Source: a phage. Taken from it: 64,000 bases of DNA. The notes under the pieces are model-generated. The model made no database searches. It saw only the letters and a list, made by a program, of their open reading frames with translations, and was not told the origin of the DNA. Positions within the stretch are counted from its first letter, which is position 1; every line of letters starts with the position of its first letter. The position numbers and the translations under genes were made by a program. Shown piece after piece: positions 35,944 through 63,455 of the stretch. The stretch lies in the sequence record PZ445550.1; one strand, given 5' to 3'.

Positions 35944-36805
35944 CTAAAATTTCAATACGTTTTGCTAACATATCAATTTCTTCTTTGTTTAAATCACCGG
36001 GGTCTTTACCTTCAGGCAGAAGAAAGTTAGCAACTACAGGCGTTAAACGTGTTTTTGTACGAATTAGCTTAGCCAATGCTTGTGCAGCTTTATTACCAGA
36101 AGTATCATTATCTAGTAAGATAACAACAACTTTAACGCCAGAAATAATATAAGGACTGAACTTATCTGCAATGTTATCAGAAGTAAACTGATGTGTACCA
36201 AAGCAACAAGAAGCATAGTCTATACCATTATCTTCTAGATTCAGCATATCAAAGATACCTTCAACTAGAACAAGAACTGGTGTATTATATCGTATAGGAA
36301 AAATCGGTGGTGAAACTTGTTTTGGTTTTACTAAGTATTTAGGAGGGGCAGAACTGTTTATAGAACGTCCCAGGAATAGGATATTGCGTCCAACAGCATC
36401 TGTTATTGGGAATACAATTCTGCCCTCCCAATCTGCTTGATGTTGGAAAGCAAAATATTTCTTCAAGGTCTTAGAGCTTATACCTCGGAAATCACCTTCG
36501 AAAAGGTAAGCAGATTCAGGAATTGCAAGATTCATAGAACCATTCCTAATCTCAGAAATCTTTTTACGTACTTGAGACAATCTTGGAGATTGTCTATATT
36601 GAGTTTCATTAAAATAGTGATAAATGCTCGGTATACCTTTACCAAAGCCACAACTCAAGCAGTGCATAATACCTGTTTCAGGGTCAATACGCAAACTTGG
36701 ATGTTTATCATCATGATCTGGATTGAGACAACAGATGAGGATGTCCCCACCTGTGTCCTTATATTCAATGCCTTTCAGATCAAGTAGTTCTGTTATTCTA
36801 CTCAT
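35915..36805 (-). CDS. DNA primase (zinc-binding plus TOPRIM-like)
   Basis: Cys/His cluster CCLNPDHDDKHPS...CLSCGFGKG near the N-terminus; acidic TOPRIM-like VLVEGIFD and LLDND. Confidence 0.75.
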   Translation of the reverse strand: MSRITELLDLKGIEYKDTGGDILICCLNPDHDDKHPSLRIDPETGIMHCLSCGFGKGIPSIYHYFNETQYRQSPRLSQVRKKISEIRNGSMNLAIPESAYLFEGDFRGISSKTLKKYFAFQHQADWEGRIVFPITDAVGRNILFLGRSINSSAPPKYLVKPKQVSPPIFPIRYNTPVLVLVEGIFDMLNLEDNGIDYASCCFGTHQFTSDNIADKFSPYIISGVKVVVILLDNDTSGNKAAQALAKLIRTKTRLTPVVANFLLPEGKDPGDLNKEEIDMLAKRIEILVAESLKDLV

Positions 36806-38325
36806 ATATCACTGGCCTGTTCACCTGTTGAATTTTCTGGTTTCTCTTTCTTAGCACGTTTTGGTTGAGCTGGCTTATCCTTTTCTATCGGGATAACGAA
36901 TTCTGCTTCCATTTGAGATATATCTTCCATTGCTAAGTTGGTAGTATTATCCATTCGCAGAGTCTCCCAATTCATTTTAGGCATAAACTTCACGCCATCA
37001 GAAGAACGAGTCTTAACAAAGTCAAACATAATTGCTCCTTGACCATTGTCAGCTTTAGCAGCATTAAGATTAGCAGCCATATCTGCGGAATCAAGAATCC
37101 CTTTTGACATACGTGTTCTACCGTCTTGGTCAATCTGATAAGGAGCTACACCAGCCACATTATGCTTCTGGCAGATAGATTTGAAAGATGAGCTAACAAC
37201 CATCTGTTCTTTCCAATCATACATATCGATGGTTTTGGAATCTGGAAGTCGAGTTTGGTTGATATAGTCTAGTAAAGCTACGGTAACTTTATCTCCATAT
37301 CTAGCAACTAATTTATTTAGCTCTACATCAACTGTTGTGATGGATAATTCTGGATCGTACACTATAATCATAGGAGTATGAAGTTCATACCCTTCAATGA
37401 GCTTACTTTCCATATCATAGAAATCGCTCATTTTTGCCATAGTATACTGTTTGACAAAATTATCAAAAAGTTCCTCACCACCGTTAAACATTCTGGCTCT
37501 GGTTCTAGCTAATCTTAGAAGAGCTGCCCCTTCTAATGTATTATTACGCATTGCTAGAGCAGATACCCCAGCTAACATAGCTAAATTACGTCTAAATACT
37601 TCGTGCTCTTTCATCTCAATTGAGAAATATGGAGCAATATCTCCATTTAAATACTGCTGAACCTGTATGTTTGAACAGATAATGGATTTACCAGTACCAC
37701 GCCAACCACCAAGTAGTAACGTTTCTGTACGAGCTAAGCCTATTTGAGCATCAAACTCATTACAAATACCAAGAGCGATTAAATTTAGTTTGGTATCTTC
37801 TTCTCTCTGGAAAATACGCATATTGTCTGCGTTGAATACCTTTCCAGTATTCGTTACTTTCTCTTCTAATTTTAAGTGAAGGGAGGCAACTCGATTGAGA
37901 ATTTCTCCCTGATCCAGCATTGTTAAATCTTGAAGCACATCTGTTTCCAGAAGCTTCAGGAATAAATCCTGTGTATATTCGGCTTCTAGGACTTCAAGTG
38001 CCTGTTCCATGCTCACTTCTGGGATTTGAGTGTTAGCTAAGACGACTAGAGCTTGAGAAAGGCGGGCGTTCCTATTGGCCTCAAGCATAAGTGCGTCAAT
38101 GGACGGCATTGCGTTATATTTTTTATAATAATTCTGGACGGCTTGGTAAATTGAGGAGAAAGCGTCATTAAAATGATCTTTATGCAGTTTTGAGAATGTT
38201 TCCAATGCTATTTGTTTCTGTTCAGAAGCCAGAAGCATCTTCAACACTACAGCTTGCACGTTAAACAAGGTCATTCTCCTTTGCACGCTTTCGTGCCTTC
38301 TAAATGCAAAAAGGGGAAGGAGCAT
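36802..38325 (-). CDS. DnaB-like replicative helicase
   Basis: Walker A LGGWRGTGKS; RecA-like core; longest ORF starts inside the upstream terminator hairpin, so the true start may be near 38274. Confidence 0.75.
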   Translation of the reverse strand: MLLPLFAFRRHESVQRRMTLFNVQAVVLKMLLASEQKQIALETFSKLHKDHFNDAFSSIYQAVQNYYKKYNAMPSIDALMLEANRNARLSQALVVLANTQIPEVSMEQALEVLEAEYTQDLFLKLLETDVLQDLTMLDQGEILNRVASLHLKLEEKVTNTGKVFNADNMRIFQREEDTKLNLIALGICNEFDAQIGLARTETLLLGGWRGTGKSIICSNIQVQQYLNGDIAPYFSIEMKEHEVFRRNLAMLAGVSALAMRNNTLEGAALLRLARTRARMFNGGEELFDNFVKQYTMAKMSDFYDMESKLIEGYELHTPMIIVYDPELSITTVDVELNKLVARYGDKVTVALLDYINQTRLPDSKTIDMYDWKEQMVVSSSFKSICQKHNVAGVAPYQIDQDGRTRMSKGILDSADMAANLNAAKADNGQGAIMFDFVKTRSSDGVKFMPKMNWETLRMDNTTNLAMEDISQMEAEFVIPIEKDKPAQPKRAKKEKPENSTGEQASDI

Positions 38326-38342
38326 AGCCCCCTCCCCTTAGG
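38305..38342 (-). terminator. Rho-independent terminator after D5-like gene
   Basis: Minus-strand hairpin AAGGGGAGGG-loop-CCTTCCCCTT followed by TTTTTGC. Confidence 0.55.
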
Positions 38343-38356
38343 TTTAATTTACCAGA

Positions 38357-39124
38357 TTATTCAGTAGCCGCAGCTTTTGCATCCAGTTTAGCACGCTTAG
38401 CGGCACCATCATAGTCTTTAGCAACCAGACCACGACGAGACAGCATAGATTTAGCACCGCGCTCAGATTTACCAGTTTTCTCAGCGATTTCAGCAACAGT
38501 CATGTTAGCTAGATCCAAACCTTCTAGCAGATCTTCACGAGTTTTAGCACTTGAAGTTTCCTGTACCGGCATAGCAGCGATACGGCCTTCACGCAGCAGG
38601 CTAAGAGCTTTACCACGAATCTGCTTAATATTACGACCGAAATGTTCGGCAATAGCTTCAATAGTAGCACCAGCAACAACCTGATTTACAAAGTCGGTTT
38701 CTTCATCAGGAGTGAAGGAGCGAACAGCGGCAGCTTTTTCAGTCGGCTTAACAGATGCAGTCATTTCCAGACTCAGAATTTTACCCTGTACCTGCTTAGC
38801 ACCAAATTGACCACCAGCTACAGCAGCAGCAATTTCAGCGTAAGTATACTGACCAGCATGAGCGTTCAGGAAATCAACCAGTTCAGCTTCCTGCTCAGGA
38901 GTCCACGGGGATTTCTGTACTTCGTTAGCTTTCTGTACTTCAAAACCTTCTTTACGCAGTTTGGAGCCAACAGAGCGTGCAGTAACATCTTTACCCGTTT
39001 CAGCAGCCAGTTCAGCAGCGATAGCAGCTACTTGTTCTTGAGAGATTACAGTAACACCCAGAGCAGTGGCTTTTGCTTTCAGAGACTCGGTTACACCTTC
39101 TACGTTCCAGTTCAGTTTAGACAT
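38357..39124 (-). CDS. Putative DNA-binding protein with three internal repeats (T5 D5-like)
   Basis: 255 aa, Ala/Lys-rich; three repeats of a ...AEIA...G...K...GK.LSL... module; strongly biased codon usage. Confidence 0.45.
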   Translation of the reverse strand: MSKLNWNVEGVTESLKAKATALGVTVISQEQVAAIAAELAAETGKDVTARSVGSKLRKEGFEVQKANEVQKSPWTPEQEAELVDFLNAHAGQYTYAEIAAAVAGGQFGAKQVQGKILSLEMTASVKPTEKAAAVRSFTPDEETDFVNQVVAGATIEAIAEHFGRNIKQIRGKALSLLREGRIAAMPVQETSSAKTREDLLEGLDLANMTVAEIAEKTGKSERGAKSMLSRRGLVAKDYDGAAKRAKLDAKAAATE

Positions 39125-39899
39125 TATTATTTTTCTCCAATAGTTCTTTAATCGACAGGATTTCTATCCCATTCGTTTCGGCTTTCTTATAAGATGAGGA
39201 GGAACGCTTCGATTCATCCTCACAGATTAGGTATTTGACGTCTTTGGTAACAGATTTCTTAACCGTATACCCTAGACTTTCTAAATAGTTTGTTGCATCC
39301 GTTCTGTTTGCAAAATCTTGCAAAGATCCGGTAATACATACTGTGATTCCATTTGGTTGGGCTACTAGACCATCAGTAATAATGGTCTCAGCTTTAGTGC
39401 CTCTAATACCAGTTGAGAATTTCCACGGTAATTCGATTACATCCTTGCCTTGTGGGGAATTTAGCCAGGCTTTGTAGTTTTCTCCAGCTTTGCCATCAGC
39501 TCTCACATCTTGAAAGCTAGTGCAATTTTGGGATAATTTCTTTGCTGCAACCTCTCCAATTAGAGGAATTCCTAAAGAACCGAGAACTGAACCAAAGTCA
39601 ATGTCTCCGCGAACTTTAGTATTTAATTCGCTAATTAACTTAGCGGCAACCTTGCTACCCACTGCTCTAACCAAATCTTCTTCGGTTAGGTAAAATAGTT
39701 CTGAAATCTTCGTCAGCTCCAGCTTCTCAATAGTTTTTGGGCCAAAGCCCTTTAACTTCATTTTTGTACAGAAGTTCTCAATTAACTTACTTGATTGCGC
39801 TGGACAGTTGGACTTATTCCTACAGAATAATTGTCCATTGACAAGATCTAGTTTAGAACCACAAGAGGGACATTGTGTTGGAATTTCGATTTTCATCAA
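39117..39899 (-). CDS. ligB: NAD-dependent DNA ligase, C-terminal subunit (Zn finger, HhH, BRCT)
   Basis: CPSCGSKL...CRNKSNCPAQ zinc finger, helix-hairpin-helix region, BRCT-like ITVCITGSL...YLICED. Confidence 0.85.
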   Translation of the reverse strand: MMKIEIPTQCPSCGSKLDLVNGQLFCRNKSNCPAQSSKLIENFCTKMKLKGFGPKTIEKLELTKISELFYLTEEDLVRAVGSKVAAKLISELNTKVRGDIDFGSVLGSLGIPLIGEVAAKKLSQNCTSFQDVRADGKAGENYKAWLNSPQGKDVIELPWKFSTGIRGTKAETIITDGLVAQPNGITVCITGSLQDFANRTDATNYLESLGYTVKKSVTKDVKYLICEDESKRSSSSYKKAETNGIEILSIKELLEKNNNV

Positions 39900-39926
39900 A
39901 TTTCTTCCTTATCAATTTATATAAAT

Positions 39927-39955
39927 ATTATAGCAAGTATTTAAGCATTTAGCAA
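39927..39955 (-). promoter_or_regulatory. Early promoter in the ligA-ligB spacer
   Basis: Minus strand reads TTGCTA, 17-bp spacer, TATAAT. Confidence 0.55.
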
Positions 39956-40098
39956 CTACAATTTTAACTAACTTTGCTTACCCTCGCCATAACTTTCTAT
40001 CCCTCAACTGAATGATAATAGTATATACCTAAGCGGCGAAAATGTCAATAACCACTTTATAATTCCGATATGGTAGATGGGTAGCAAAGGGTTGTGAA

Positions 40099-41070
40099 TT
40101 AATCGTATACTCGCTCTACTATACATGGGATTACACCACCAGCACGAATCACTCTAATCTGGCAACCAATCTCTAAATCAAGAGAGTTAATATAATCAAC
40201 GTTATTAAGAGTTGCTTTAATAATTGTAGCATCATCAATAATTACTGGTTCGAAATAACCAACTGGAGTTACTTTACCAGAAGCCCCTACTTGCCATTCA
40301 ACTTTAGTAAGAGTTGTAATCTCACCTTCTTCGTCCTCTTTAATAGCAAATGCTCCGCGTGGGAATTTATTAGTCCATCCCTCACGGAAGAATTTATTAT
40401 TATCATTAATACGAACAACTTTACCGTCTGTTGGAATCCATTTAAAAAAGGACCGCACATTAACAACTGTTAAAAAGTTTTCATTTTCTAGCCAAAGCAT
40501 ATCTTTTAAATATGCTTCTGTAATACCTACAGATTCGGAAGAGCACTGAATACCGTAAGCAACAAAAATTAAACCACCTTCCCCTATACGTTGTACGAAA
40601 TCATCACTATCTTTAAGATTAATAGCACCAGAGGCAAAGTTACGTTTATTTTCTACTTCTTTTGTAATTAGAACTTCACCAGTGATTTGGGTTGGTACTT
40701 TTTGAGAAATCTTTTTAGGTATGTTCAGCAATCTTACGTTGCTTGTGACATCATTTCCTAAAATACCGTTACCACGGGTTAGTGCTTGAACAAACTCACC
40801 ATCAATATATAGTAGAGAAATTGCACACCCATCCAGTTTATCTGTTTCTACTTGTCCTAGTGGATTGAATGGTGGTTTGTCTCCACGATTATAGTAAACT
40901 TTCTGCAAAGAATACATACGATATAGATGTGGAATATCACCCTTAGGACCAATCTCTTCTTCCAATGGGAAGCGTTTTACTAGGCAATCATACTCTTCAT
41001 CCGAGATGAGAGACATACCCTGATAATATGCTTCTTGACAACGTTTGATAAATTCTCTTATATTAGTCAT
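40099..41070 (-). CDS. ligA: NAD-dependent DNA ligase, N-terminal subunit (adenylation plus OB fold)
   Basis: KxDG adenylation motif (ETDKLDGCAISLLY); ORF ends where full-length LigA would continue into the zinc finger. Confidence 0.85.
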   Translation of the reverse strand: MTNIREFIKRCQEAYYQGMSLISDEEYDCLVKRFPLEEEIGPKGDIPHLYRMYSLQKVYYNRGDKPPFNPLGQVETDKLDGCAISLLYIDGEFVQALTRGNGILGNDVTSNVRLLNIPKKISQKVPTQITGEVLITKEVENKRNFASGAINLKDSDDFVQRIGEGGLIFVAYGIQCSSESVGITEAYLKDMLWLENENFLTVVNVRSFFKWIPTDGKVVRINDNNKFFREGWTNKFPRGAFAIKEDEEGEITTLTKVEWQVGASGKVTPVGYFEPVIIDDATIIKATLNNVDYINSLDLEIGCQIRVIRAGGVIPCIVERVYD

Positions 41071-41343
41071 TTATTTCACCTCGTAATACATAGGTTGTCT
41101 AGTGGACCCGTGCCATGTATAATTCTTGCACAGATGTAGGTATGTAGTTTTTACTAGCCTATCTGATAGAGGAGAGTATATCTCGGCTATTAGAGTACCT
41201 TTTTCATAGAAGATAGAAACAAACCTATATCCACACCTGGTTTTGGTATATTTCTCTCCGTTAACCTTTTCCTCCCACATAAGAATAAGAGGTTGCCCTA
41301 TGTATGGAAAAGGTTTAAGTGTGCTTATTTTTATCTTTTTCAC
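41071..41343 (-). CDS. Hypothetical early protein
   Basis: 90-aa ORF with GTG start behind GAGAGGG; own promoter upstream. Confidence 0.4.
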   Translation of the reverse strand: MKKIKISTLKPFPYIGQPLILMWEEKVNGEKYTKTRCGYRFVSIFYEKGTLIAEIYSPLSDRLVKTTYLHLCKNYTWHGSTRQPMYYEVK

Positions 41344-41373
41344 TTTACAACCCTCTCATTAATTTATATAAAT

Positions 41374-41402
41374 ATTATATAATAAAATTGGGATGAAAGC
41401 AA
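41374..41402 (-). promoter_or_regulatory. Early promoter
   Basis: Minus strand reads TTGCTT, 17-bp spacer, TATAAT. Confidence 0.55.
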
Positions 41403-41410
41403 GAACATTT

Positions 41411-41446
41411 ATAAAGAAAAAGCCAAGAACTAGGCATTCTTGGCTT
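41411..41446 (-). terminator. Rho-independent terminator
   Basis: Minus-strand hairpin GCCAAGAA-loop-TTCTTGGC followed by TTTTTCTTT. Confidence 0.55.
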
Positions 41447-41738
41447 TGAGTTCTTCAGCTCGTTTCTGTACTTCTTGTAGAACCTCAGATTCACTAAGGA
41501 TCTGTGTAAATGCATAGAAAAGCTGTGATGTTGTTTCTAGGGTGTAAGGGAAAGAGAAACCAGATTTCGTTGGAAACCATTCATCATTAATATCAAGAAG
41601 CCAGTAACGAATACCCATGTATAGATTCCCACGAAATTCAGATACTGTTAATCTTACTTGTTCTCCCTCCTTTTCCCAAAGTATGATAGACTGGTCATCA
41701 ACATGTCCATCGTAGTTTTGATTTACCTGTTCGCTCAT
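41430..41738 (-). CDS. Hypothetical early protein
   Basis: 102-aa ORF. Confidence 0.4.
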   Translation of the reverse strand: MSEQVNQNYDGHVDDQSIILWEKEGEQVRLTVSEFRGNLYMGIRYWLLDINDEWFPTKSGFSFPYTLETTSQLFYAFTQILSESEVLQEVQKRAEELKAKNA

Positions 41739-41788
41739 TTACATATCCCAAATACACAAAAAGCCCCATATAGGGGCTAATTGGTTTC

Positions 41789-42085
41789 TTATCGGCCTAC
41801 TGGAGAAGCACGATCTAACTCTGACTGGAGACTAGTCACACGGCGGACTTTCTCAACAGGAATAAAACGGAAGCTATCATTAGTACGAGAGAAGACAAGA
41901 ATTTCATTATCTTTCGCCTTACGAATACGTTCACGTTTAATACGCTCAGCCAAATATTTATCTTGGGCTGGATCAAATTCCATCGTACCCTGAAGGTACG
42001 TGGTTCCTTTCTGACGAAGTTTTTCGTAATGAAGATAAAACTCACCAAATTTTTCGCACTGTGCAATAATTTCAGCTTTGGTCAT
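41789..42085 (-). CDS. Hypothetical early protein
   Basis: 98-aa ORF, basic and coiled-coil-like. Confidence 0.4.
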   Translation of the reverse strand: MTKAEIIAQCEKFGEFYLHYEKLRQKGTTYLQGTMEFDPAQDKYLAERIKRERIRKAKDNEILVFSRTNDSFRFIPVEKVRRVTSLQSELDRASPVGR

Positions 42086-42122
42086 AACTGTAGTTCCTTT
42101 TGTTGGTGGATTTATCTAGAAA

Positions 42123-42533
42123 TTACTTAGTGATAGCTCGGATTGCTTCTGCTAGGTGAGCAGCCGCTTTACCAGTCAATTTATCAATAATTGCATCATC
42201 CAAGAAGTCAGATGCTAGACCTGCATCAGAGAATGCAGCACGAAGATCTGAGTGGGCCTGGGCTTTAGAAGTACGGGAACCGCCAGAAGATTTTTCTCCA
42301 GTAGATGCACTTGATTTAGCCGTAGAACCAGCAGCTTTCTTAATATACAGACCTGCTTTGGTTAACTTCATACGGAATCCGTTCGGAGTTACACCATTTT
42401 CCTGGGCAATTTCGCTAACAATTTCCATGCTAACACCAGGACGTTCATCCTCTGGGAATTGTTCCATACGAGCAACATATTCGGAAGACATTTTTTCAAA
42501 CAGTTCATCAGTCCACTGAGTTGGGGTAGTCAT
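42123..42533 (-). CDS. Hypothetical early protein (Ala/Ser-rich)
   Basis: 136-aa ORF with E. coli-optimal codons; ATG sits about 55 nt downstream of a promoter. Confidence 0.45.
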   Translation of the reverse strand: MTTPTQWTDELFEKMSSEYVARMEQFPEDERPGVSMEIVSEIAQENGVTPNGFRMKLTKAGLYIKKAAGSTAKSSASTGEKSSGGSRTSKAQAHSDLRAAFSDAGLASDFLDDAIIDKLTGKAAAHLAEAIRAITK

Positions 42534-42590
42534 ATTTTATATTTCCTTAATTAAGAATTAAACAGAATAGTTCTTTCAAACTATGAGAAT

Positions 42591-42619
42591 ATTATATCAA
42601 GAATTATAGGATTAAGCAA
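42591..42619 (-). promoter_or_regulatory. Early promoter
   Basis: Minus strand reads TTGCTT, 17-bp spacer, TATAAT. Confidence 0.55.
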
Positions 42620-42636
42620 CTGAAATTTTTCAGTAA

Positions 42637-42888
42637 TTACTCCACTAGGCCTACAGCGAGCATATCATCAATGCTGGCAATCTCCCAATCATCAGCAATA
42701 GCTTCACATACTGTTATATTAACAACCTCACTGTACGGATAATTACCCGCTACCCAAATATGTTGAGTAGCTACATCTAAATCAGCATCTAAAGTTAGCA
42801 GCACTAAGCCATAGTTATCATTATTCCAGCTTTTTCTGTATAGTGTTTTTGTTTCACCATCCTTTAACAGCTCTGTTAATTTACTCAC
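42637..42888 (-). CDS. Hypothetical early protein
   Basis: ORF with probable GTG start at 42888 overlapping the upstream stop codon. Confidence 0.35.
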   Translation of the reverse strand: MSKLTELLKDGETKTLYRKSWNNDNYGLVLLTLDADLDVATQHIWVAGNYPYSEVVNITVCEAIADDWEIASIDDMLAVGLVE

Positions 42889-43585
42889 GGCGTTTTCCTT
42901 TCTCTTTATCAAGTTTCAGAGCAGCTTTGACAGCTTCATTAATCAACGTGATTACTTCTTCTCGAGTCCATTTATATCCTAAGGATTTTACATCAACCCC
43001 TAGCTTTTCCAGATGCTTTACAGAAGCTAATTCATAATTCATATAATGAACGTTCTGCTGTTTACCTTCCGATAGTAGCCAAACTCGATAACAACCAACA
43101 GGATTATCCATTGCTTTTTTGATTTCACCGATACATTGATAGCCAGGAACCCAAACTAGTTCTCCGACTTCAAATTCTTCAGCTACTGCATCATCAGGGA
43201 TGATTGGCGGATTTAATGGGTCTACAATATCGTTAAGACGAAGCAGAGCACCATAGCGTTCCAAAACTGATTTAACCATTGCTACCGAACGATAATTACG
43301 ATCTGCAATCTCTTCAAAAGAATCACCAGATAGATACTGTTCAATAACGTTGGCTAACTCGATGCCTTCAATGAGTGTACCACGTTTCTTTTTCTTCATC
43401 TCGGCAACTTGAATCTGACGGTCTTGCCATTCTTCAATCATCCTTTCCATAGTCGGATTAGAAGAAACACCGAGCATTTCACACGCTGCTTTCTTAGTAC
43501 CACCGTTCTCCAGATGCTCTATAACCTTTTTAAAGACTTCATCCGGGATTTCATGGATATGTTTCTTTCTGCGAGAACCAGCCAT
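42881..43585 (-). CDS. Putative HTH DNA-binding early protein
   Basis: 234 aa; predicted helix-turn-helix (GGTKKAACEMLGVSSNPTMERMI); first gene behind a P_N25-like promoter. Confidence 0.45.
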   Translation of the reverse strand: MAGSRRKKHIHEIPDEVFKKVIEHLENGGTKKAACEMLGVSSNPTMERMIEEWQDRQIQVAEMKKKKRGTLIEGIELANVIEQYLSGDSFEEIADRNYRSVAMVKSVLERYGALLRLNDIVDPLNPPIIPDDAVAEEFEVGELVWVPGYQCIGEIKKAMDNPVGCYRVWLLSEGKQQNVHYMNYELASVKHLEKLGVDVKSLGYKWTREEVITLINEAVKAALKLDKEKGKRRE

Positions 43586-43626
43586 ATTTAAACTCCTCTC
43601 TCAAATTTATGAATCTATTATACAGA

Positions 43627-43655
43627 AATTTTTTGCATTATGCAAATAAATTTTT
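43627..43655 (-). promoter_or_regulatory. Strong early promoter, T5 P_N25-like
   Basis: Minus strand: TTGCAT, 17-bp spacer, TATAAT, then AGATTCATAAATTTGAGAGAGGAG leader, which matches the T5 P_N25 promoter as recalled. Confidence 0.65.
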
Positions 43656-43896
43656 ACGATTCCTTGAGCAAAGAAGCAAGTTCAGCATAGACTTTATCTA
43701 ACTCAAAGCCGATGCGAAGAGACACGTTAGTTTTCCGTTGTTTAAGTAACCACTCGGATATGTTAGGGATACCAGCTAATCTATGTGGTACCACCCTACA
43801 TAGCTTTTCCGAAGTATCGTAAACAGGAACTTTACGCTCTTTTACTGGAAACTTCCTTGTTTCCCATTTTTTATTCTTCGCTGTCATTCCTAGCAC
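43654..43896 (-). CDS. Hypothetical early protein
   Basis: 80-aa ORF overlapping the 3' end of the large helicase gene. Confidence 0.35.
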   Translation of the reverse strand: MLGMTAKNKKWETRKFPVKERKVPVYDTSEKLCRVVPHRLAGIPNISEWLLKQRKTNVSLRIGFELDKVYAELASLLKES

Positions 43897-46738
43897 CTAA
43901 CTCTGCCATTGCTTCATCATGCATATGTTTCTCCTCATCGGTCATAAACTTATAAGGAATTGGCATACACTCGATTTTACAATAGGTTCTGTACCAGTCT
44001 ATAATATTCTCCGTGTTCATATCCTTACCAATACCCATCATACCAAGATACATTCTCGCATATTTTGGGTTAGCACTCTGACCTGTTTTAAGAAAGAAAT
44101 CTTTTTTCTTACCTTTCAGAGCTTCTATGAAGGGTTTGATAGTGACATTTGAACACTTCTTAATATCTTCCCAAAACATCTCGTGCATTTTATGAAAGAA
44201 TGCAGCTCGATCATTTGGTTTATCTTTGATATACTGCTCAACATGCTCTACTGTTACGTCTTTAATAGACTCAAGATGGTAGTAGCGAACAAGGAGTAGT
44301 TTAGCTTCATATGCATCCGCATGGCGTGGAGCACAGTAATCAGGGGTTGAGTGCAGGATAGCTTTAATTCGCTCTTCTGTATATTCTTTACCCGCACCTT
44401 CAATAGTTCCCCAGCTTTCACTGAAAATATCAATAGTTGCTCCCTGATCTAGCAGATAATAACGTAAAGTACTGGTATAATTCCTAGATTCAAGCTCCCT
44501 ACGACGTGCGTATAATTGTTGGGCTAATTCTAACCAACCTTCATCAATATTATACTGTTCAGAACCTGCTGAGAATCCACTAGTGGATTTATCTATAAAA
44601 TAATAGATATTCTGAGCACCACGGTCGCGCCTAATTGCTTGAAAACGCATGTTTGGTGCTTGGTTACTAGTTCTAGTAATAACGAATACGTTATCAAAAT
44701 AATTAAAGTCAACCCCACTCGTTACTGATGGACTACATAATAAACAATCAATCTGTTGATCAATTAGCTCATTAGTTGTGTAATCCAGAATACGTCTAAT
44801 ATCCACATCAGACGTAGAGTTTGAGTGGATTTCCTTAACTAACGCACCAGTATTACGACGCAGTGCCATACCTTTTTCGTTAAGTTCATCAGGCCCACAA
44901 TCAGATACTAGAATTGATTTCTCACCCATCTCTAAAGATGTTTGAAGTGCAACCCAAATACTGGATTCATCGGGAAACTCATACGCATGAGCCTTTGATA
45001 GCATTTTACGGTGATGGTTATAAAATGCTACTGGTTTATCAAAATCAATAAGAGAACCATAAGCTTCAATCGTCTCAGCACTAATATCGCCATCCGATAA
45101 TATTACAGTTTTAGCTGTCATGAGAATATCACGAAGAACCTGAATACACTCACGGCGTTGTTTAACAACTGGAGCGAACAGCAGATCATTCATTACAGCG
45201 TCGCATTCATCAATAAAAATGGTGTCTATTTGACCAATGAAACTCTTAAATTTGTGCAAAGAATGGATAGTTGTAGACATACGATCAATAGCGCCGCGCT
45301 TAAAATTAAGCATATCAACTGATTTATCATACTGTCCCGCACTAAACTTTTTGGCATTTGAGGATACAAGTGCTCTAGTATTTGTAACTGCCAAAAAATT
45401 TCCTGGAAGAACGCCAGCATCAAGCCATTTAGTTACTGCCGTAGTTTTACCCGTACCAAGACTTGCCTTAACAAATGTTATATGATTTTTTGGAGGCACA
45501 ATGTTAATCTTCAGATATGGGACTTCTGGGGGAGAATCAGTATCTAGACGTTTTAATGGTACACCTTTTAGATTTGGTGGAATCTCACGTTTGGAATTGT
45601 TCACAAACGCTTTAAGAGCTTGCTTACGACCATTATTAAAATAATCTTGAATATTACGACTGTTATCTTTTGTTGCAATATATTCGGATAAAGCAGGTTT
45701 AATCTCACGTTCTAACCATGCAAAATCAACACCATCCTCTAGTGCTCTGTGATAAAGCTTTGGTATAATACGTAGATACACCCCATCCTCAGCTTCTTCT
45801 AATTCGCTGATGGTTTCTTCTACTTTATCAGATGCGATCTTTTTACCTTTAATTTGGTCAAGTAAAGAATAGAACTCTTCCTTAAACTCCCCTCTAGTTG
45901 TTTCATAGTCAACTAGATTATTAGGCAGATTTATTTTCGAACCTTTAACATACACTAGACGTGGTTTATTCTCCGCTTTAAACGGATCAACTATACCATC
46001 ATTAAATAAAGGATCAGCAAAATAGTGAAGCTGTACAGAAGAGTAATAAGCTAAGTCGGCAATATCAAAGCCATACTTTTGTTTACTACTGTCATTGATA
46101 GATGTAAATAAGAACTTTAATTGCCCTTGTGTTACCTTAACATTAGATTCTAGTATTAAGTGCATTCGGATACCTGGTTTTAGTCCAGCCGAAGACGATG
46201 CATGAGCAATAAACCCTGCATCAAGAGGAAACATATCCTCACTAATACTATTCAACATCTTAATAATATGCCGCGCCATACCAACAAGATTAAACTTGTC
46301 ATAGCCACCAGTATCTATAATACCATCCACATCCATAGCGACTATATGGCTAGGGTTGGAAACATTAAAGTTACCTCGGATACGACGAACATTATCTTTT
46401 GGAGCTAAACATTTACCACGAATAGCTACAATATGCGGATCCCTTGTGAGACGACGCATAATAGGCAACATTTCAGCAAGATTCTGTGGGTCAAGTTCTT
46501 CAAGTACATCAAATTTGAAGGGCATGGAAGCTGGTTTACCTTCTGGATGCTCTTTAGAGAATCTCTTTGCAAAGGTATAATCTTCCGCTTTGATCTCTTT
46601 CCAGATACCTGTGGCTTTATCTCTGGAAAATCCTGCATGACCTTGTAGGATTGAGAACACAACAGTACTCCTATGTTGGTTATTCGGATATTTTTCTCTA
46701 GGACTATTCAGAAAGAATAGAACAACTATTACTACCAT
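43871..46738 (-). CDS. Large SF2-type ATPase/helicase, putative replication origin-binding protein
   Basis: Walker A SLGTGKTT, Walker B IFIDECD, helicase C motifs; N-terminal start uncertain. Confidence 0.6.
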   Translation of the reverse strand: MVVIVVLFFLNSPREKYPNNQHRSTVVFSILQGHAGFSRDKATGIWKEIKAEDYTFAKRFSKEHPEGKPASMPFKFDVLEELDPQNLAEMLPIMRRLTRDPHIVAIRGKCLAPKDNVRRIRGNFNVSNPSHIVAMDVDGIIDTGGYDKFNLVGMARHIIKMLNSISEDMFPLDAGFIAHASSSAGLKPGIRMHLILESNVKVTQGQLKFLFTSINDSSKQKYGFDIADLAYYSSVQLHYFADPLFNDGIVDPFKAENKPRLVYVKGSKINLPNNLVDYETTRGEFKEEFYSLLDQIKGKKIASDKVEETISELEEAEDGVYLRIIPKLYHRALEDGVDFAWLEREIKPALSEYIATKDNSRNIQDYFNNGRKQALKAFVNNSKREIPPNLKGVPLKRLDTDSPPEVPYLKINIVPPKNHITFVKASLGTGKTTAVTKWLDAGVLPGNFLAVTNTRALVSSNAKKFSAGQYDKSVDMLNFKRGAIDRMSTTIHSLHKFKSFIGQIDTIFIDECDAVMNDLLFAPVVKQRRECIQVLRDILMTAKTVILSDGDISAETIEAYGSLIDFDKPVAFYNHHRKMLSKAHAYEFPDESSIWVALQTSLEMGEKSILVSDCGPDELNEKGMALRRNTGALVKEIHSNSTSDVDIRRILDYTTNELIDQQIDCLLCSPSVTSGVDFNYFDNVFVITRTSNQAPNMRFQAIRRDRGAQNIYYFIDKSTSGFSAGSEQYNIDEGWLELAQQLYARRRELESRNYTSTLRYYLLDQGATIDIFSESWGTIEGAGKEYTEERIKAILHSTPDYCAPRHADAYEAKLLLVRYYHLESIKDVTVEHVEQYIKDKPNDRAAFFHKMHEMFWEDIKKCSNVTIKPFIEALKGKKKDFFLKTGQSANPKYARMYLGMMGIGKDMNTENIIDWYRTYCKIECMPIPYKFMTDEEKHMHDEAMAELGARNDSEE

Positions 46739-61810: not shown

Positions 61811-62512
61811 ATGAAAGTAAAACCATTTGGTATGTTAGATATTGAATCCCTAGGAACTCCAGGAGATTGTGGTACTACTCATATCGCAATGCCTTCTTTC
61901 GCTTTTGTGGCTATGCACGGAATTGATAAAGATCCAGGGCTGGTATTTGTTACTTTAGATGTGCAAGATCAGCTTAATTCTGGAGCTAAAGTTACAGCAT
62001 CTACTCTAGCATTCTGGATGGATCAGGCTAAGAATAGCCCATCTGCTCTCCACATTATGGAAGCTATGAAGGGATGTAACCCAACTCTAACCGCTTTCCA
62101 AGATGGTAAACATCATTGCACTAATAAACTTGGCTCTAACTATGCTGCCTACTCTATGGTTCAAAACATCATGGAGTTAGCATTAGGAGAGAATGCTCTA
62201 TATTATGGTAATGGCCCAGAGTTTGATATGACTATCTACTCTGCAAATACATTCCATGCTGGAACCAATGAAGAAATAGTTCCGTGGAAATTCTGGAACT
62301 TAGGTAATGTTCGATCACTTCGTAATCTTTGGATGCAAGCTGGCTATAGTTATAAAGATTTAGAGTCTGAAGGTATTAGCTGGGCAAAAGCTAAAATGGA
62401 GAAGATGGACACTATTCGTTATGGAATCTATCCGGTTAAGCACGACCCGGCATTCGATGCCTTAGTTGAAAGTTATTGTGTTGCAGCTATGATCGAAAAA
62501 ATCAAAATTTGA
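61811..62512 (+). CDS. Putative DEDDh-type 3'-5' exonuclease (DnaQ-like fold)
   Basis: Motif I GMLDIESLG (D-x-E), motif II region YGNGPEFD, motif III HDPAFDAL (H-x-A-x-x-D). Confidence 0.45.
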   Translation: MKVKPFGMLDIESLGTPGDCGTTHIAMPSFAFVAMHGIDKDPGLVFVTLDVQDQLNSGAKVTASTLAFWMDQAKNSPSALHIMEAMKGCNPTLTAFQDGKHHCTNKLGSNYAAYSMVQNIMELALGENALYYGNGPEFDMTIYSANTFHAGTNEEIVPWKFWNLGNVRSLRNLWMQAGYSYKDLESEGISWAKAKMEKMDTIRYGIYPVKHDPAFDALVESYCVAAMIEKIKI

Positions 62513-62513
62513 T

Positions 62514-62542
62514 TTGCTATTAGCCCCAAAATTCTGTATAAT
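62514..62542 (+). promoter_or_regulatory. Early promoter
   Basis: TTGCTA, 17-bp spacer, TATAAT, followed by P_N25-like leader ATATTCATAAATTTGAGA. Confidence 0.55.
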
Positions 62543-62581
62543 ATATTCATAAATTTGAGAAAACAACAAAAGGAAAACAAT

Positions 62582-62764
62582 ATGCCAGTATCTAAAAATG
62601 TTCGTAAAAATGGTAAGAAAGCTACTCGTAATCTGGGTATTCGTCGTATGGTTGAACGTCAATCAGGTGTCCAGAAAATCTTTGATCTGCTAAATCGTGC
62701 TAATCCTAAAATTGATAACAGTAAAGATACTGTTCTGCGTACCTTACTGGCAATTGGTCTGTAA
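62582..62764 (+). CDS. Hypothetical small basic protein
   Basis: ATG 62582 behind AAAAGGAAAACAAT, the same leader as at 60700. Confidence 0.4.
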   Translation: MPVSKNVRKNGKKATRNLGIRRMVERQSGVQKIFDLLNRANPKIDNSKDTVLRTLLAIGL

Positions 62765-62816
62765 TAGACCAACTTTAAATAAATTCAAATCTTAAACTTC
62801 ATATAAGGAAGAAACA

Positions 62817-63455
62817 ATGACTACTCGTATTTCTAAAACTCGTGCTCTGGCAACCATCAAATCCCTGGAAGCTAAAATCCGCAAAGCTACCGAACAGCAT
62901 CTACTGATTGCTGTTGGTGAGGGTAAGGATAAAAATAAGGTTGTAGTTGGCGCTGCAATCGAAGTAGATGCTCTGTCTACTCGTATTAAGACAGATTTCC
63001 AGTCTCTGCTGGATATGATGTCCCAGCGTGATCGTATCAAAGCTGCCCTGATTAAGAGCAACGCGGAAACAATCGTTGAGATTGGTTCTCGTAAAATGAC
63101 TGTTGCGGAAGCAATTGAAGCTAAACGTTCTATGGAGCTTAAAGCTCAGTTGCTGGCTAATATGCGTAAGCAGTTCCATGCTGCTACTGTTAAATTTAAC
63201 ACGCAAAAAGCACAGTTTGATGCTAAATACGAGCGTTTGCAGGATAGCATGGCTACCCGTGATAAGAAAACTTCCGAAGATGAAGTTAAAATGCAGCTCA
63301 ACCTGTTGGAACTTAAGAATACCCCATTCTTGATTGACCCGCTGGAGCTGGAAAAGCTGATCAAGCAGCATGACGAGGAATACCAGGACTTTGCAACAAA
63401 TGTTGATTTTGTTCTGTCTGAGTCTAATGCTTCTACTTTTATCGAAGTAGAGTAA
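62817..63455 (+). CDS. Hypothetical protein
   Basis: 212-aa ORF, E. coli-optimal codons, AGGAAG ribosome-binding site. Confidence 0.5.
   Translation: MTTRISKTRALATIKSLEAKIRKATEQHLLIAVGEGKDKNKVVVGAAIEVDALSTRIKTDFQSLLDMMSQRDRIKAALIKSNAETIVEIGSRKMTVAEAIEAKRSMELKAQLLANMRKQFHAATVKFNTQKAQFDAKYERLQDSMATRDKKTSEDEVKMQLNLLELKNTPFLIDPLELEKLIKQHDEEYQDFATNVDFVLSESNASTFIEVE

Follow-up and report, generated by a model that had tools for sequence, protein, structure and literature searches.

NAD-dependent DNA ligases of the LigA type are, in bacteria, single polypeptides of ~670 aa in which a KxDG motif, an OB fold, a Cys4 zinc finger, a helix-hairpin-helix (HhH) region and a BRCT domain follow each other in this order (e.g., Escherichia coli, PDB 2owo; Thermus filiformis, PDB 1dgs/1v9p). 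In phage T5 this enzyme is encoded by two genes, ligA (T5.116, YP_006944/AAU05253) and ligB (T5.117, YP_006945/AAU05254), between which the RefSeq record places two promoters, the order being ligA, P-K28b, P-K28a, and ligB. The names of these promoters go back to mapping experiments done in vitro in the 1980s. Subunits A and B of the T5 ligase are named routinely in the literature (PMC3632103, PMC4319617), and both chains of a homologue with the same domain split, the ligase of Providencia phage PR1/PSTCR5, are deposited in the PDB (9hu3 and 9i5i). A literature search on the 9hu3/9i5i structure, on an assay of the T5 ligase and on the P-K28 promoters returned no paper from the collection searched. 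[quoted passage not shown]

Here we describe the ligase locus in a stretch of phage DNA of 64,000 nucleotides (sequence record PZ445550.1; hereafter the window), which shows 100% identity to the T5-like Escherichia phage KookSpook and ~92% identity to T5-like genomes in which ligA/ligB or ligase subunits A/B are annotated. We establish its domain content, its break point, its identity to the T5 genes and promoters, its conservation and the layout of its operon. The locus very probably represents the two-subunit NAD-dependent DNA ligase of T5-like phages (Demerecviridae), which would have arisen by an ancient fission and has two early promoters in the gap. Both the two-gene ligase and the two spacer promoters are already known, since they are annotated in the T5 reference genome.

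A Ligase Encoded by Two Adjacent Genes

The initial annotation of the window recognized an NAD-dependent ligase split into two minus-strand genes, with ORFs at 40099..41070 and 39117..39899, and this is borne out by Pfam and by alignments to LigA. The first gene, ligA (40099..41070, minus strand; 323 aa), is called "NAD-dependent DNA ligase" in KookSpook and ligA in T5. Its product contains the NAD-ligase adenylation domain (PF01653, E=3.4e-23) followed by the OB domain (PF03120, E=5e-22, residues 252–321), and it also matches bacterial LigA structures in phmmer, residues 214–320 aligning to residues 284–390 of E. coli LigA. The adenylation lysine of the KxDG motif is found in K78-L-D-G, which does not vary among five divergent homologues and is aligned with KVDG in the T. 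filiformis ligase. In the N-terminal segment AYYQGMSLISDEEYD the residues Y15, Y16, Y27, and D28 are invariant in the family, and the alignment to bacterial ligases is weak there (-0.8 bits, phmmer). These residues may correspond to the NMN-binding residues of domain Ia of E. coli LigA (Y22, H23, D32, Y35, and D36). In motif IV the T5-type ligA family has an arginine (R220) where bacterial LigA has a lysine.

The second gene, ligB (39117..39896, minus strand; 259 aa), encodes the DNA-binding subunit. Zinc finger cysteines (C9, C12, C25, and C31) occur at its N-terminus, the BRCT domain scores 35.7 bits against a Pfam cut-off of 21.3, and the HHH_2 domain, with 25.0 bits, remains slightly under its cut-off of 27. 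Residues 3–251 align to residues 400–653 of 1dgs (E=1.1e-10, phmmer), and ligB also aligns to residues 402–530 of 2owo. The ORF was annotated correctly at first, but its start was placed at a TTG at 39899, which is less likely than the ATG at 39896. A ribosome-binding site read from the sequence, AAGGAAG (39904..39910, minus strand), lies 7 nt before this ATG and is kept in the spacer alignments, and the start region is conserved as ATGAAAAT in distant relatives.

Alignment of both ORFs to bacterial LigA, which the initial annotation had proposed as a check, confirms the break point: residue 320 of ligA matches E. coli LigA residue 390 and residue 3 of ligB matches residue 402, so that the end of ligA maps to ~393 and the start of ligB to ~400. 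On this evidence the split separates the OB fold from the zinc finger; all domains are present, and neither split end has an extra tail in the alignments to LigA structures. The domains that the LigA family carries on one polypeptide are distributed here over two ORFs, separated by 202 nt in which every frame is closed by stops, and this is the defining feature of the T5-type ligase variant.

We propose that a LigA-type gene underwent fission long ago at the flexible linker that joins OB fold and zinc finger. Of the two products, ligA would be the catalytic module, comprising domain Ia, the nucleotidyltransferase domain in which K78 is the lysine that becomes adenylated, and the OB fold; ligB would be the DNA-clamping module, comprising the zinc finger, HhH and BRCT domains. 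The two proteins are expected to assemble non-covalently into the equivalent of the single-chain bacterial LigA, and the resulting two-chain enzyme would be an active ligase. Indirect evidence that subunits A and B would share one complex is provided by 9hu3 and 9i5i, which hold both PR1 chains; in phmmer, chain A of 9hu3 (339 aa) matches ligA (E=5.6e-104) and chain B (248 aa, "DNA ligase subunit B") matches ligB (E=4.1e-80).

A Conserved Spacer with Two Annotated Promoters

The non-coding spacer (39897..40098, minus strand) measures 202 nt from the ligA stop codon to the ligB ATG, or 199 nt if ligB starts at the TTG, and not 197 bp as first annotated. Two T5 promoter features of 75 nt, each 100% identical to its RefSeq counterpart, together cover ~150 nt of it. 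The ligA-proximal one, P-K28b (39994..40068, minus strand; "promoter P-K 28b," 66366-66440 in T5), consists of a -35 TTGACA (40048..40043), 17 nt, and a -10 TATACT (40025..40020), with a predicted start at ~40013; it matches the consensus at 11 of 12 positions and reads TATACTATT, with CTATT instead of ATATT. The ligB-proximal one, P-K28a (39901..39975, minus strand; "promoter P-K 28a," 66459-66533 in T5), has a -35 TTGCTA (39955..39950), 17 nt, and a TG-extended -10 TATAAT (39932..39927), with a predicted start at ~39920; it matches at 10 of 12 positions, with the TG before the -10 in addition, and reads TATAATATT, in which the ATATT element described for early promoters of T5 (PMC7472727) is present. 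It is the TTGCTA-17-TATAAT promoter (39955..39927) that the initial annotation had noticed while missing P-K28b. Because the spacer carries this predicted, T5-annotated site, ligB could be transcribed on its own, in line with the separate expression of the halves that had been suggested. A consensus scan found 11 promoter-like sites in 3.5 kb against 9.2 expected from shuffled sequence, which is not above chance, and the assignment of P-K28a and P-K28b, therefore, relies on conservation and on the T5 annotation.

This conservation is pronounced. Among 27 T5-type loci the spacer has a pi of 0.004–0.006 versus a regional median of 0.07, making it the most conserved stretch of the region, and a promoter block of 172 nt is at least 99% identical in 416 out of 439 phage records, against differences of 5–10% in the flanking genes. 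The variable part of the spacer alignment is limited to the first ~30 nt past the ligA stop. The P-K28b hexamers are kept in Sugarland, L035, PR1, and PM135, although the neighboring bases diverge. No ORF lies wholly inside the spacer. An ORF of 40 aa (40004..40126), annotated as a CDS in KookSpook, overlaps the end of ligA and P-K28b; it has no Pfam or PHROG match, and we treat it as spurious because a CGA-to-TGA change truncates it in three relatives (L007 and two loci of the L013 group). Judged from these comparisons, the present-day gap does not look like a decaying scar but like regulatory DNA.

The two ligase genes lie inside the early replication gene cluster, as in the T5-type layout. 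Upstream of ligA, a predicted early promoter for orf90 and ligA (TTGCTT-17-TATAAT; 41374..41402, minus strand) aligns to an unnamed promoter of the T5 record at this place and shares with P-K28a a string of 19 nt, TATAATATTTATATAAATT. Downstream of ligB follows D5 (38357..39124, minus strand), annotated as a D5-like transcriptional regulator and described in the T5 record as a DNA-binding protein needed for replication and late transcription. The ATG of D5 overlaps the stop codon of ligB (ATGTCTAA), and for this reason D5 is likely to be co-transcribed with ligB and probably translationally coupled to it. A strong predicted intrinsic terminator past D5 (38311..38339, minus strand; a stem of 13 bp, 8 of them G-C, followed by a T run) closes the ligB-D5 unit, and Sugarland has an annotated terminator at the equivalent place, 3' of its D5 homologue. 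In the region, no terminator was found after ligA, so that transcripts of ligB and D5 probably arise by read-through from ligA as well as from the two internal promoters. We propose that P-K28b and P-K28a, if active in this phage, act as tandem sigma-70 early promoters that start a ligB-D5 transcript ending at the terminator past D5, and that ligA would be served by its own upstream early promoter of the same type.

Distribution and Age of the Split

More than 430 deposited genomes of phages share this two-gene arrangement. Among LigA homologues, the 120 closest (98% to 46% identity) are 310–340 aa long and possess the adenylation and OB domains only, with the exception of one partial sequence of 240 aa. 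For a broader comparison we used loci from IMG/VR and GenBank with at least 41% identity and with both halves on the contig. All 67 of these have ligA 5' of ligB on the same strand and are broken at the same OB/zinc finger junction, and in a rough neighbor-joining tree they form one clade. The fission appears to be a single old event common to the whole T5-type clade, as far as this phylogeny indicates.

The content of the gap is far less uniform. Its length varies from 52 nt to 3.8 kb among the split relatives, and this wide variation suggests that the OB/zinc finger site accepts insertions. In a marine clade the gap is only 52–54 nt and holds just a promoter and a ribosome-binding site, the -35 of the promoter overlapping the ligA stop codon where the gap is 52 nt, whereas gaps of 3.8 kb are full of accessory genes. 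A sigma-70-type site (TTGnnn-17-TATAAT) ending 25–41 nt upstream of ligB is nevertheless present in 38 out of 39 representative split loci, while the corresponding junction of the 11 fused relatives shows in no case a promoter-like site that exceeds background. A member of a separately split clade (L082) also has a near-consensus site, TTGACA-17-TATATT.

Origin and Maintenance of the Split

Why the ligase has stayed in two pieces may, tentatively, be explained by the transcription of the locus. The linker between OB fold and zinc finger would then be kept as the fixed start of the ligB-D5 unit and as a tolerated landing site for accessory genes, and the split would be retained since there is no way to encode a strong AT-rich promoter within the reading frame. 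The accessory genes named for this landing site are NADAR, DprA-like and T5orf172.

How the split came about is a separate question. The initial annotation suggested that the spacer may be the scar of a lost mobile element, i.e., that a free-standing homing endonuclease or other mobile gene was inserted at the linker and later lost, with its remains now serving as promoters. As a description of the present spacer this finds no support, since the spacer contains no endonuclease or ORF remnant and is strongly constrained rather than decaying. As an account of the ancient fission it is a possible but, in our view, rather unlikely one. It gains some credit from the separately split clade, where the gap of one member (L080) is exactly filled by an ORF of 263 aa with a TnsA-like endonuclease domain (PF08722, E=1e-11), and from distant T5-type relatives with T5orf172 nuclease-like genes directly after ligA (L065 and L067) or directly before ligB (L066). 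The variable gap content, the HNH genes hegI and hegJ that T5 carries elsewhere in its replication cluster, and the precedent of mobE in Aeh1 nrdA (PMC3045599) point the same way. However, the search for an endonuclease in the gap of relatives, which had been put forward as a check, found no such gene in any of the 27 T5-type loci, nor in Sugarland, PR1, PM135, and the Vibrio phages. The small gap ORFs of PM135, Vibrio phages VF16 and 70E35-1 and the window yielded no match in Pfam, and PHROGs assigned them only to a DprA-like protein and to families of unknown function. The split ends also do not have novel tails like those that resulted from the Aeh1 insertion, and a gap of 52–54 nt, as in the marine clade, would equally be expected from a simple stop-and-restart fission.

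A different question is whether the extreme conservation of the spacer points to a further element besides the promoters, be it a leader RNA with a structured 5' part, an operator bound by a phage regulator or a recombination linker between the two modules; we regard this as improbable. In the window, the RNA between the predicted P-K28b start and ligB has an unusually low folding energy of -31.5 kcal/mol (z = -4.65 versus shuffles), but this fold is absent in Sugarland, L035, PR1, and PM135; the leader sequences of the T5-type loci themselves are too alike for covariation testing. Long inverted repeats over the -35 of the ligB-proximal promoter, P-K28a, occur in L035 and PM135 (10 bp each, p=0.0025), but in the other 13 of the 15 lineages the repeat does not reach significance, and these two account for the combined p of 0.025. 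The spacer also shows no sign of being a recombination junction, since pairwise distances of ligA and ligB correlate as well (rho 0.77) as those between the two halves of ligA (rho 0.75). Conservation does continue for ~55 nt inside ligB. However, the annotated promoter features already span 150 of the ~170 conserved bases, and a second promoter-bearing intergenic region, matching T5 P-N26 (the name given in the T5 record, rather than PD/E20, to the promoter upstream of D3), is equally conserved.

Two remaining possibilities can be practically dismissed. Rejoining of the halves into one mature chain, whether through a split intein, through splicing of the RNA or through ribosomal bypassing as in T4 gene 60, would have parallels, as split inteins and bypassing are known to repair fragmented phage genes (PMC2677866; bioRxiv 10.1101/2022.08.31.505936), but ligA ends with the OB fold and ligB begins at the zinc finger, leaving no extra residues and, therefore, no room for intein halves, the spacer has no match to an intron or any other RNA family in Rfam, ligB is equipped with a promoter, a ribosome-binding site and an ATG of its own, whole unrelated genes separate the halves in relatives, and the PDB entries list two chains. 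That the two adjacent partial ORFs merely reflect a sequencing error, a frameshift or a recent disruption of a single ligase gene is refuted by the comparative data, as the arrangement recurs in the independent genomes and in all sampled relatives mentioned above, both halves are conserved as proteins with chains deposited separately in the PDB, and no single frameshift or base error could fuse the ORFs because ligB is in another frame than ligA and the 202-nt gap has stops in all three frames.

Comparison with Known Systems

The two-subunit ligase that we favor is, thus, an ordinary one, because the T5 reference genome annotates the arrangement and the two-chain ligase of a related phage has a solved structure. 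Hundreds of T5-like genomes annotate both genes. If unpublished, there may be modest residual value in the single old fission, in the ligB-proximal promoter that accompanies the split almost everywhere, and in the second clade that is split at the same linker and has one member with an endonuclease-like gene in the gap. Together, these points make the ligase a small but serviceable illustration of the way in which fragmented phage genes originate and are maintained.

T5 is the closest described system, with the same genes, order, strand and break point, and it shares the downstream D5 gene and the promoter upstream of ligA with the window. Its spacer differs from that of the window by 2 bases, both outside the identical promoter features. 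DNA identity between the window and the T5-type loci compared is ~90% over ligA and ~95% over ligB. The window, like KookSpook, differs from T5 by an extra ORF of 90 aa between the upstream promoter and ligA and does not contain hegI and hegJ in the cluster around the ligase genes. PR1 has the same tandem promoter hexamers in a gap of 192 nt but infects a different host, and its proteins are more distant (~54% identity for LigA in tblastn, <60% for LigB). Relative to bacterial LigA the domain order is the same, although the enzyme consists of two chains of 323 and 259 aa, the region before the lysine in ligA is ~37 residues shorter, and ~6 linker residues are absent. Finally, nrdA of Aeh1 is likewise an essential enzyme of phage DNA metabolism in two pieces that assemble without splicing, but there the gap is still occupied by the endonuclease gene and assembly depends on new tails that its insertion created (PMC3045599), whereas the ligase of the window has neither.

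The ligase genes and the break between them

The NAD-dependent DNA ligase is encoded by two minus-strand genes, ligA (40099..41070; 323 aa) and ligB (39117..39899 if its TTG start is included). According to Pfam, the former comprises the adenylation domain (E=3.4e-23) and the OB fold (E=5e-22) and the latter a BRCT domain, plus HhH matches of lower strength. In alignments to bacterial LigA structures, ligA residues 214-320 are the counterpart of E. coli LigA 284-390, the KLDG motif (K78) lines up with the adenylation motif of Thermus filiformis, and ligB aligns with E. coli LigA from its residue 3 (= residue 402), with a Cys4 zinc finger (C9, C12, C25, C31) at its start. The break point therefore lies in the OB|Zn linker, which bears out the split proposed in the initial annotation: about six linker residues are missing, all domains are present and neither half carries an added tail. 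Motif IV of ligA reads DGKVVR (T. filiformis, DGVVVK); bacterial LigA has a lysine in place of its arginine, R220 (window ~40411..40413), which all five of the divergent T5-type ligA proteins compared share.

The ligB ORF does extend to 39899, where a restart had been placed, but the ATG at 39896 appears to be the better start, judging from the AAGGAAG that precedes it and from its retention, as ATGAAAAT, in distant relatives. The spacer is consequently 202 nt long (199 nt when counted to the TTG) and not 197 bp.

Promoters in the spacer

The TTGCTA-17-TATAAT promoter noted initially, with TG ahead of its -10 hexamer, is P-K28a of T5 (39975..39901, minus strand); a second, P-K28b (40068..39994, minus strand; TTGACA-17-TATACT), had been overlooked. 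Both 75-nt features are identical to those of T5, from which the spacer differs by two bases just past the ligA stop. P-K28a reads TATAATATT, which may be compared with the ATATT adjoining the -10 hexamer reported for T5 early promoters (PMC7472727).

A bare consensus scan did not exceed chance (11 sites versus 9.2 expected in shuffled sequence) and is insufficient by itself; it is their conservation that makes these promoters more than chance matches. Among the 27 T5-type loci, nucleotide diversity (pi) is 0.004-0.006 across 40050..39841, compared with 0.07 for the regional median, and spacer variation is confined to ~30 nt past the ligA stop. Of 439 phage records, 416 match the 172-nt promoter block at 99% identity or more; for comparison, one record matches the whole 2.4-kb region that closely, and 408 match it at 90-95%. 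In Sugarland, L035 (a related locus), PR1 and PM135, the proteins are just 54-72% identical and the bases between the promoter elements have diverged; TTGAC-N17-TATAnT and TTGC-N-TTGnTATAATAT are retained. Other near-zero-diversity islands (pi 0.000-0.018) among T5-type phages are 42510..42600, coinciding with T5 promoter P-N26 upstream of D3, 39090..39180, the overlap of ligB with the downstream gene D5, and 38131..38220, within the helicase gene.

A 40-aa hypothetical protein annotated in KookSpook (40004..40126, minus strand) overlaps the ligA 3' end and P-K28b. It has no family match and is truncated at codon 8 by a CGA-to-TGA change in L007 and two L013-group loci; it is probably not a gene. 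An RNA that started at P-K28b would be predicted to fold, at -31.5 kcal/mol (z = -4.65; 0/200 shuffles as good), into a long hairpin (39880..40013, minus strand) pairing with the -10 region of P-K28a. The fold is not retained in more distant relatives, and a conserved leader RNA was set aside, as was, after testing, an operator-like inverted repeat.

A promoter also accompanies the split more widely. Of 39 representative split loci, 38 have a TTGnnn-17-TATAAT site ending 25-41 nt ahead of the ligB ATG. These lineages are related, so that the counts are not independent; the remaining gap sequence, however, is not homologous between clades. The pattern extends to the 52-nt gaps, in which the ligA stop codon and the -35 overlap. 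A score as high as the observed one came up in 0-7% of random 110-nt windows drawn from the same loci, and at the junction of fused relatives none of 11 has a promoter-like site scoring above background.

Operon layout

The D5 start and the ligB stop share bases (ATGTCTAA), and a strong intrinsic terminator (38339..38311, minus strand) follows D5, at a position where one is annotated in Sugarland; no terminator was found after ligA. The ligA early promoter (41402..41374, minus strand) matches one annotated in T5 and has a 19-nt string, TATAATATTTATATAAATT, in common with P-K28a. Both ligase halves would thus be early genes, and we infer that ligB and D5 most likely have two sources of transcription, the promoters P-K28b and P-K28a on the one hand and read-through from ligA on the other.

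A 90-aa ORF (phrog_35018; 41071..41343, minus strand) separates ligA from its promoter, in a region where many T5-type loci show alignment gaps (gap fraction 0.4-0.85); in T5, which lacks the ORF, the same promoter and ribosome-binding site lead straight into ligA. The ATG (38325) of the 507-aa DnaB-like helicase ORF falls within the stem of the post-D5 terminator, and T5 D6 is annotated at 502 aa; the true dnaB/D6 start looks uncertain.

Spread and origin of the split

The 120 closest LigA homologues (98% to 46% identity) are 310-340 aa long and contain the adenylation and OB domains alone, a 240-aa partial protein being the sole exception. In a survey of 78 IMG/VR loci and GenBank loci, all 67 relatives with at least 41% identity and both halves on the contig are split at the same junction. 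The nearest fused genes (L072-L076; 34-36% identity) are sister to one split clade in a rough neighbour-joining tree; these proteins of ~575-580 aa have no CxxC cysteines at the zinc-finger position and may represent LigA variants without a zinc finger. A separate clade of split ligases, comprising L080 and L082, has its break at the OB|Zn junction too.

The gap itself varies greatly. It measures 52-54 nt in ~20 marine metagenome contigs (promoter and ribosome-binding site only), 71 nt in L045, 191-199 nt in L035, PR1 and Sugarland, and 202 nt, with two promoters, in all 27 T5-type loci. Small ORFs occupy it in Proteus phage PM135 (338 nt; 55-aa ORF), Vibrio phage 70E35-1 (443 nt) and L041 and L042 (683 nt). 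Longer gaps hold a NADAR gene in Proteus phage Stubb (795 nt), a DprA-like gene and small ORFs in Vibrio phages (922-1374 nt), and a T5orf172 nuclease-like gene in L066 (1107 nt) and, with other genes, in L065 and L067 (~3820 nt). The Stubb NADAR-domain protein (PF08719, E=1.8e-31; L037 6953..7609) is absent from its close relative PM135, where the DprA-like protein (phrog_768) is encoded upstream of ligA instead; relatives with accessory genes between the halves include L037, L005 (3885..4448), L039, L043, L044 and L069. Small T5orf172-domain proteins (phrog_681 'endonuclease') are encoded beside ligA or ligB in marine T5-type relatives (L065 6918..7289; L066 7584..7946).

The spacer had been suggested to be the scar of a lost mobile element. 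Today's spacer consists almost wholly of promoter sequence and is strongly constrained, and is therefore not a decaying remnant. A mobile element as the cause of the original fission is a separate matter, for which the plasticity of the gap, the T5orf172 genes in some gaps and the 777-nt gap of L080, filled exactly by a single ORF with a TnsA-like endonuclease domain (L080 7076..7867), may be cited, together with the precedent of Aeh1 nrdA/mobE (PMC3045599). However, no endonuclease gene was found in the gaps of any of the 27 T5-type loci, Sugarland, PR1, PM135 or the Vibrio phages, the split ends lack added tails, and the marine clade has a minimal gap of 52 nt; we consider such an origin unlikely. 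A frameshift, artefact or pseudogene was set aside, since the spacer has stop codons in all three frames and the ligA and ligB frames differ; rejoining by an intein or ribosomal bypass and a recombination junction between the genes were likewise dismissed after testing.

Comparison with known systems

The 2.4-kb ligase region matches Escherichia phage KookSpook at 100% identity and, at ~92%, many T5-like phages with ligase subunits A and B annotated in their records; KookSpook and T5_ev212 have the two genes annotated as in the window. T5 carries HNH endonuclease genes in its replication cluster (hegI, 62318-62836; hegJ, 69614-70147), whereas the KookSpook annotation of the matching stretch (window ~36000..44000) has none at these positions, and its helicase and primase genes directly abut. 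In the T5 reference (NC_005859) the order is ligA (T5.116), 'promoter P-K 28b', 'promoter P-K 28a', ligB (T5.117) and D5, and the T5 subunits have been named in passing (PMC3632103, PMC4319617). In PDB entries 9hu3 and 9i5i, a chain of 339 aa named 'DNA ligase (NAD(+))' and one of 248 aa named 'DNA ligase subunit B' match ligA (E=5.6e-104) and ligB (E=4.1e-80), respectively; the ligB region of Providencia phages PR1 and PSTCR5 matches chain B with 100% identity. The split ligase is confirmed and its main interpretation was right, but it was known and annotated beforehand, and the structure of a two-chain homologue has been solved.
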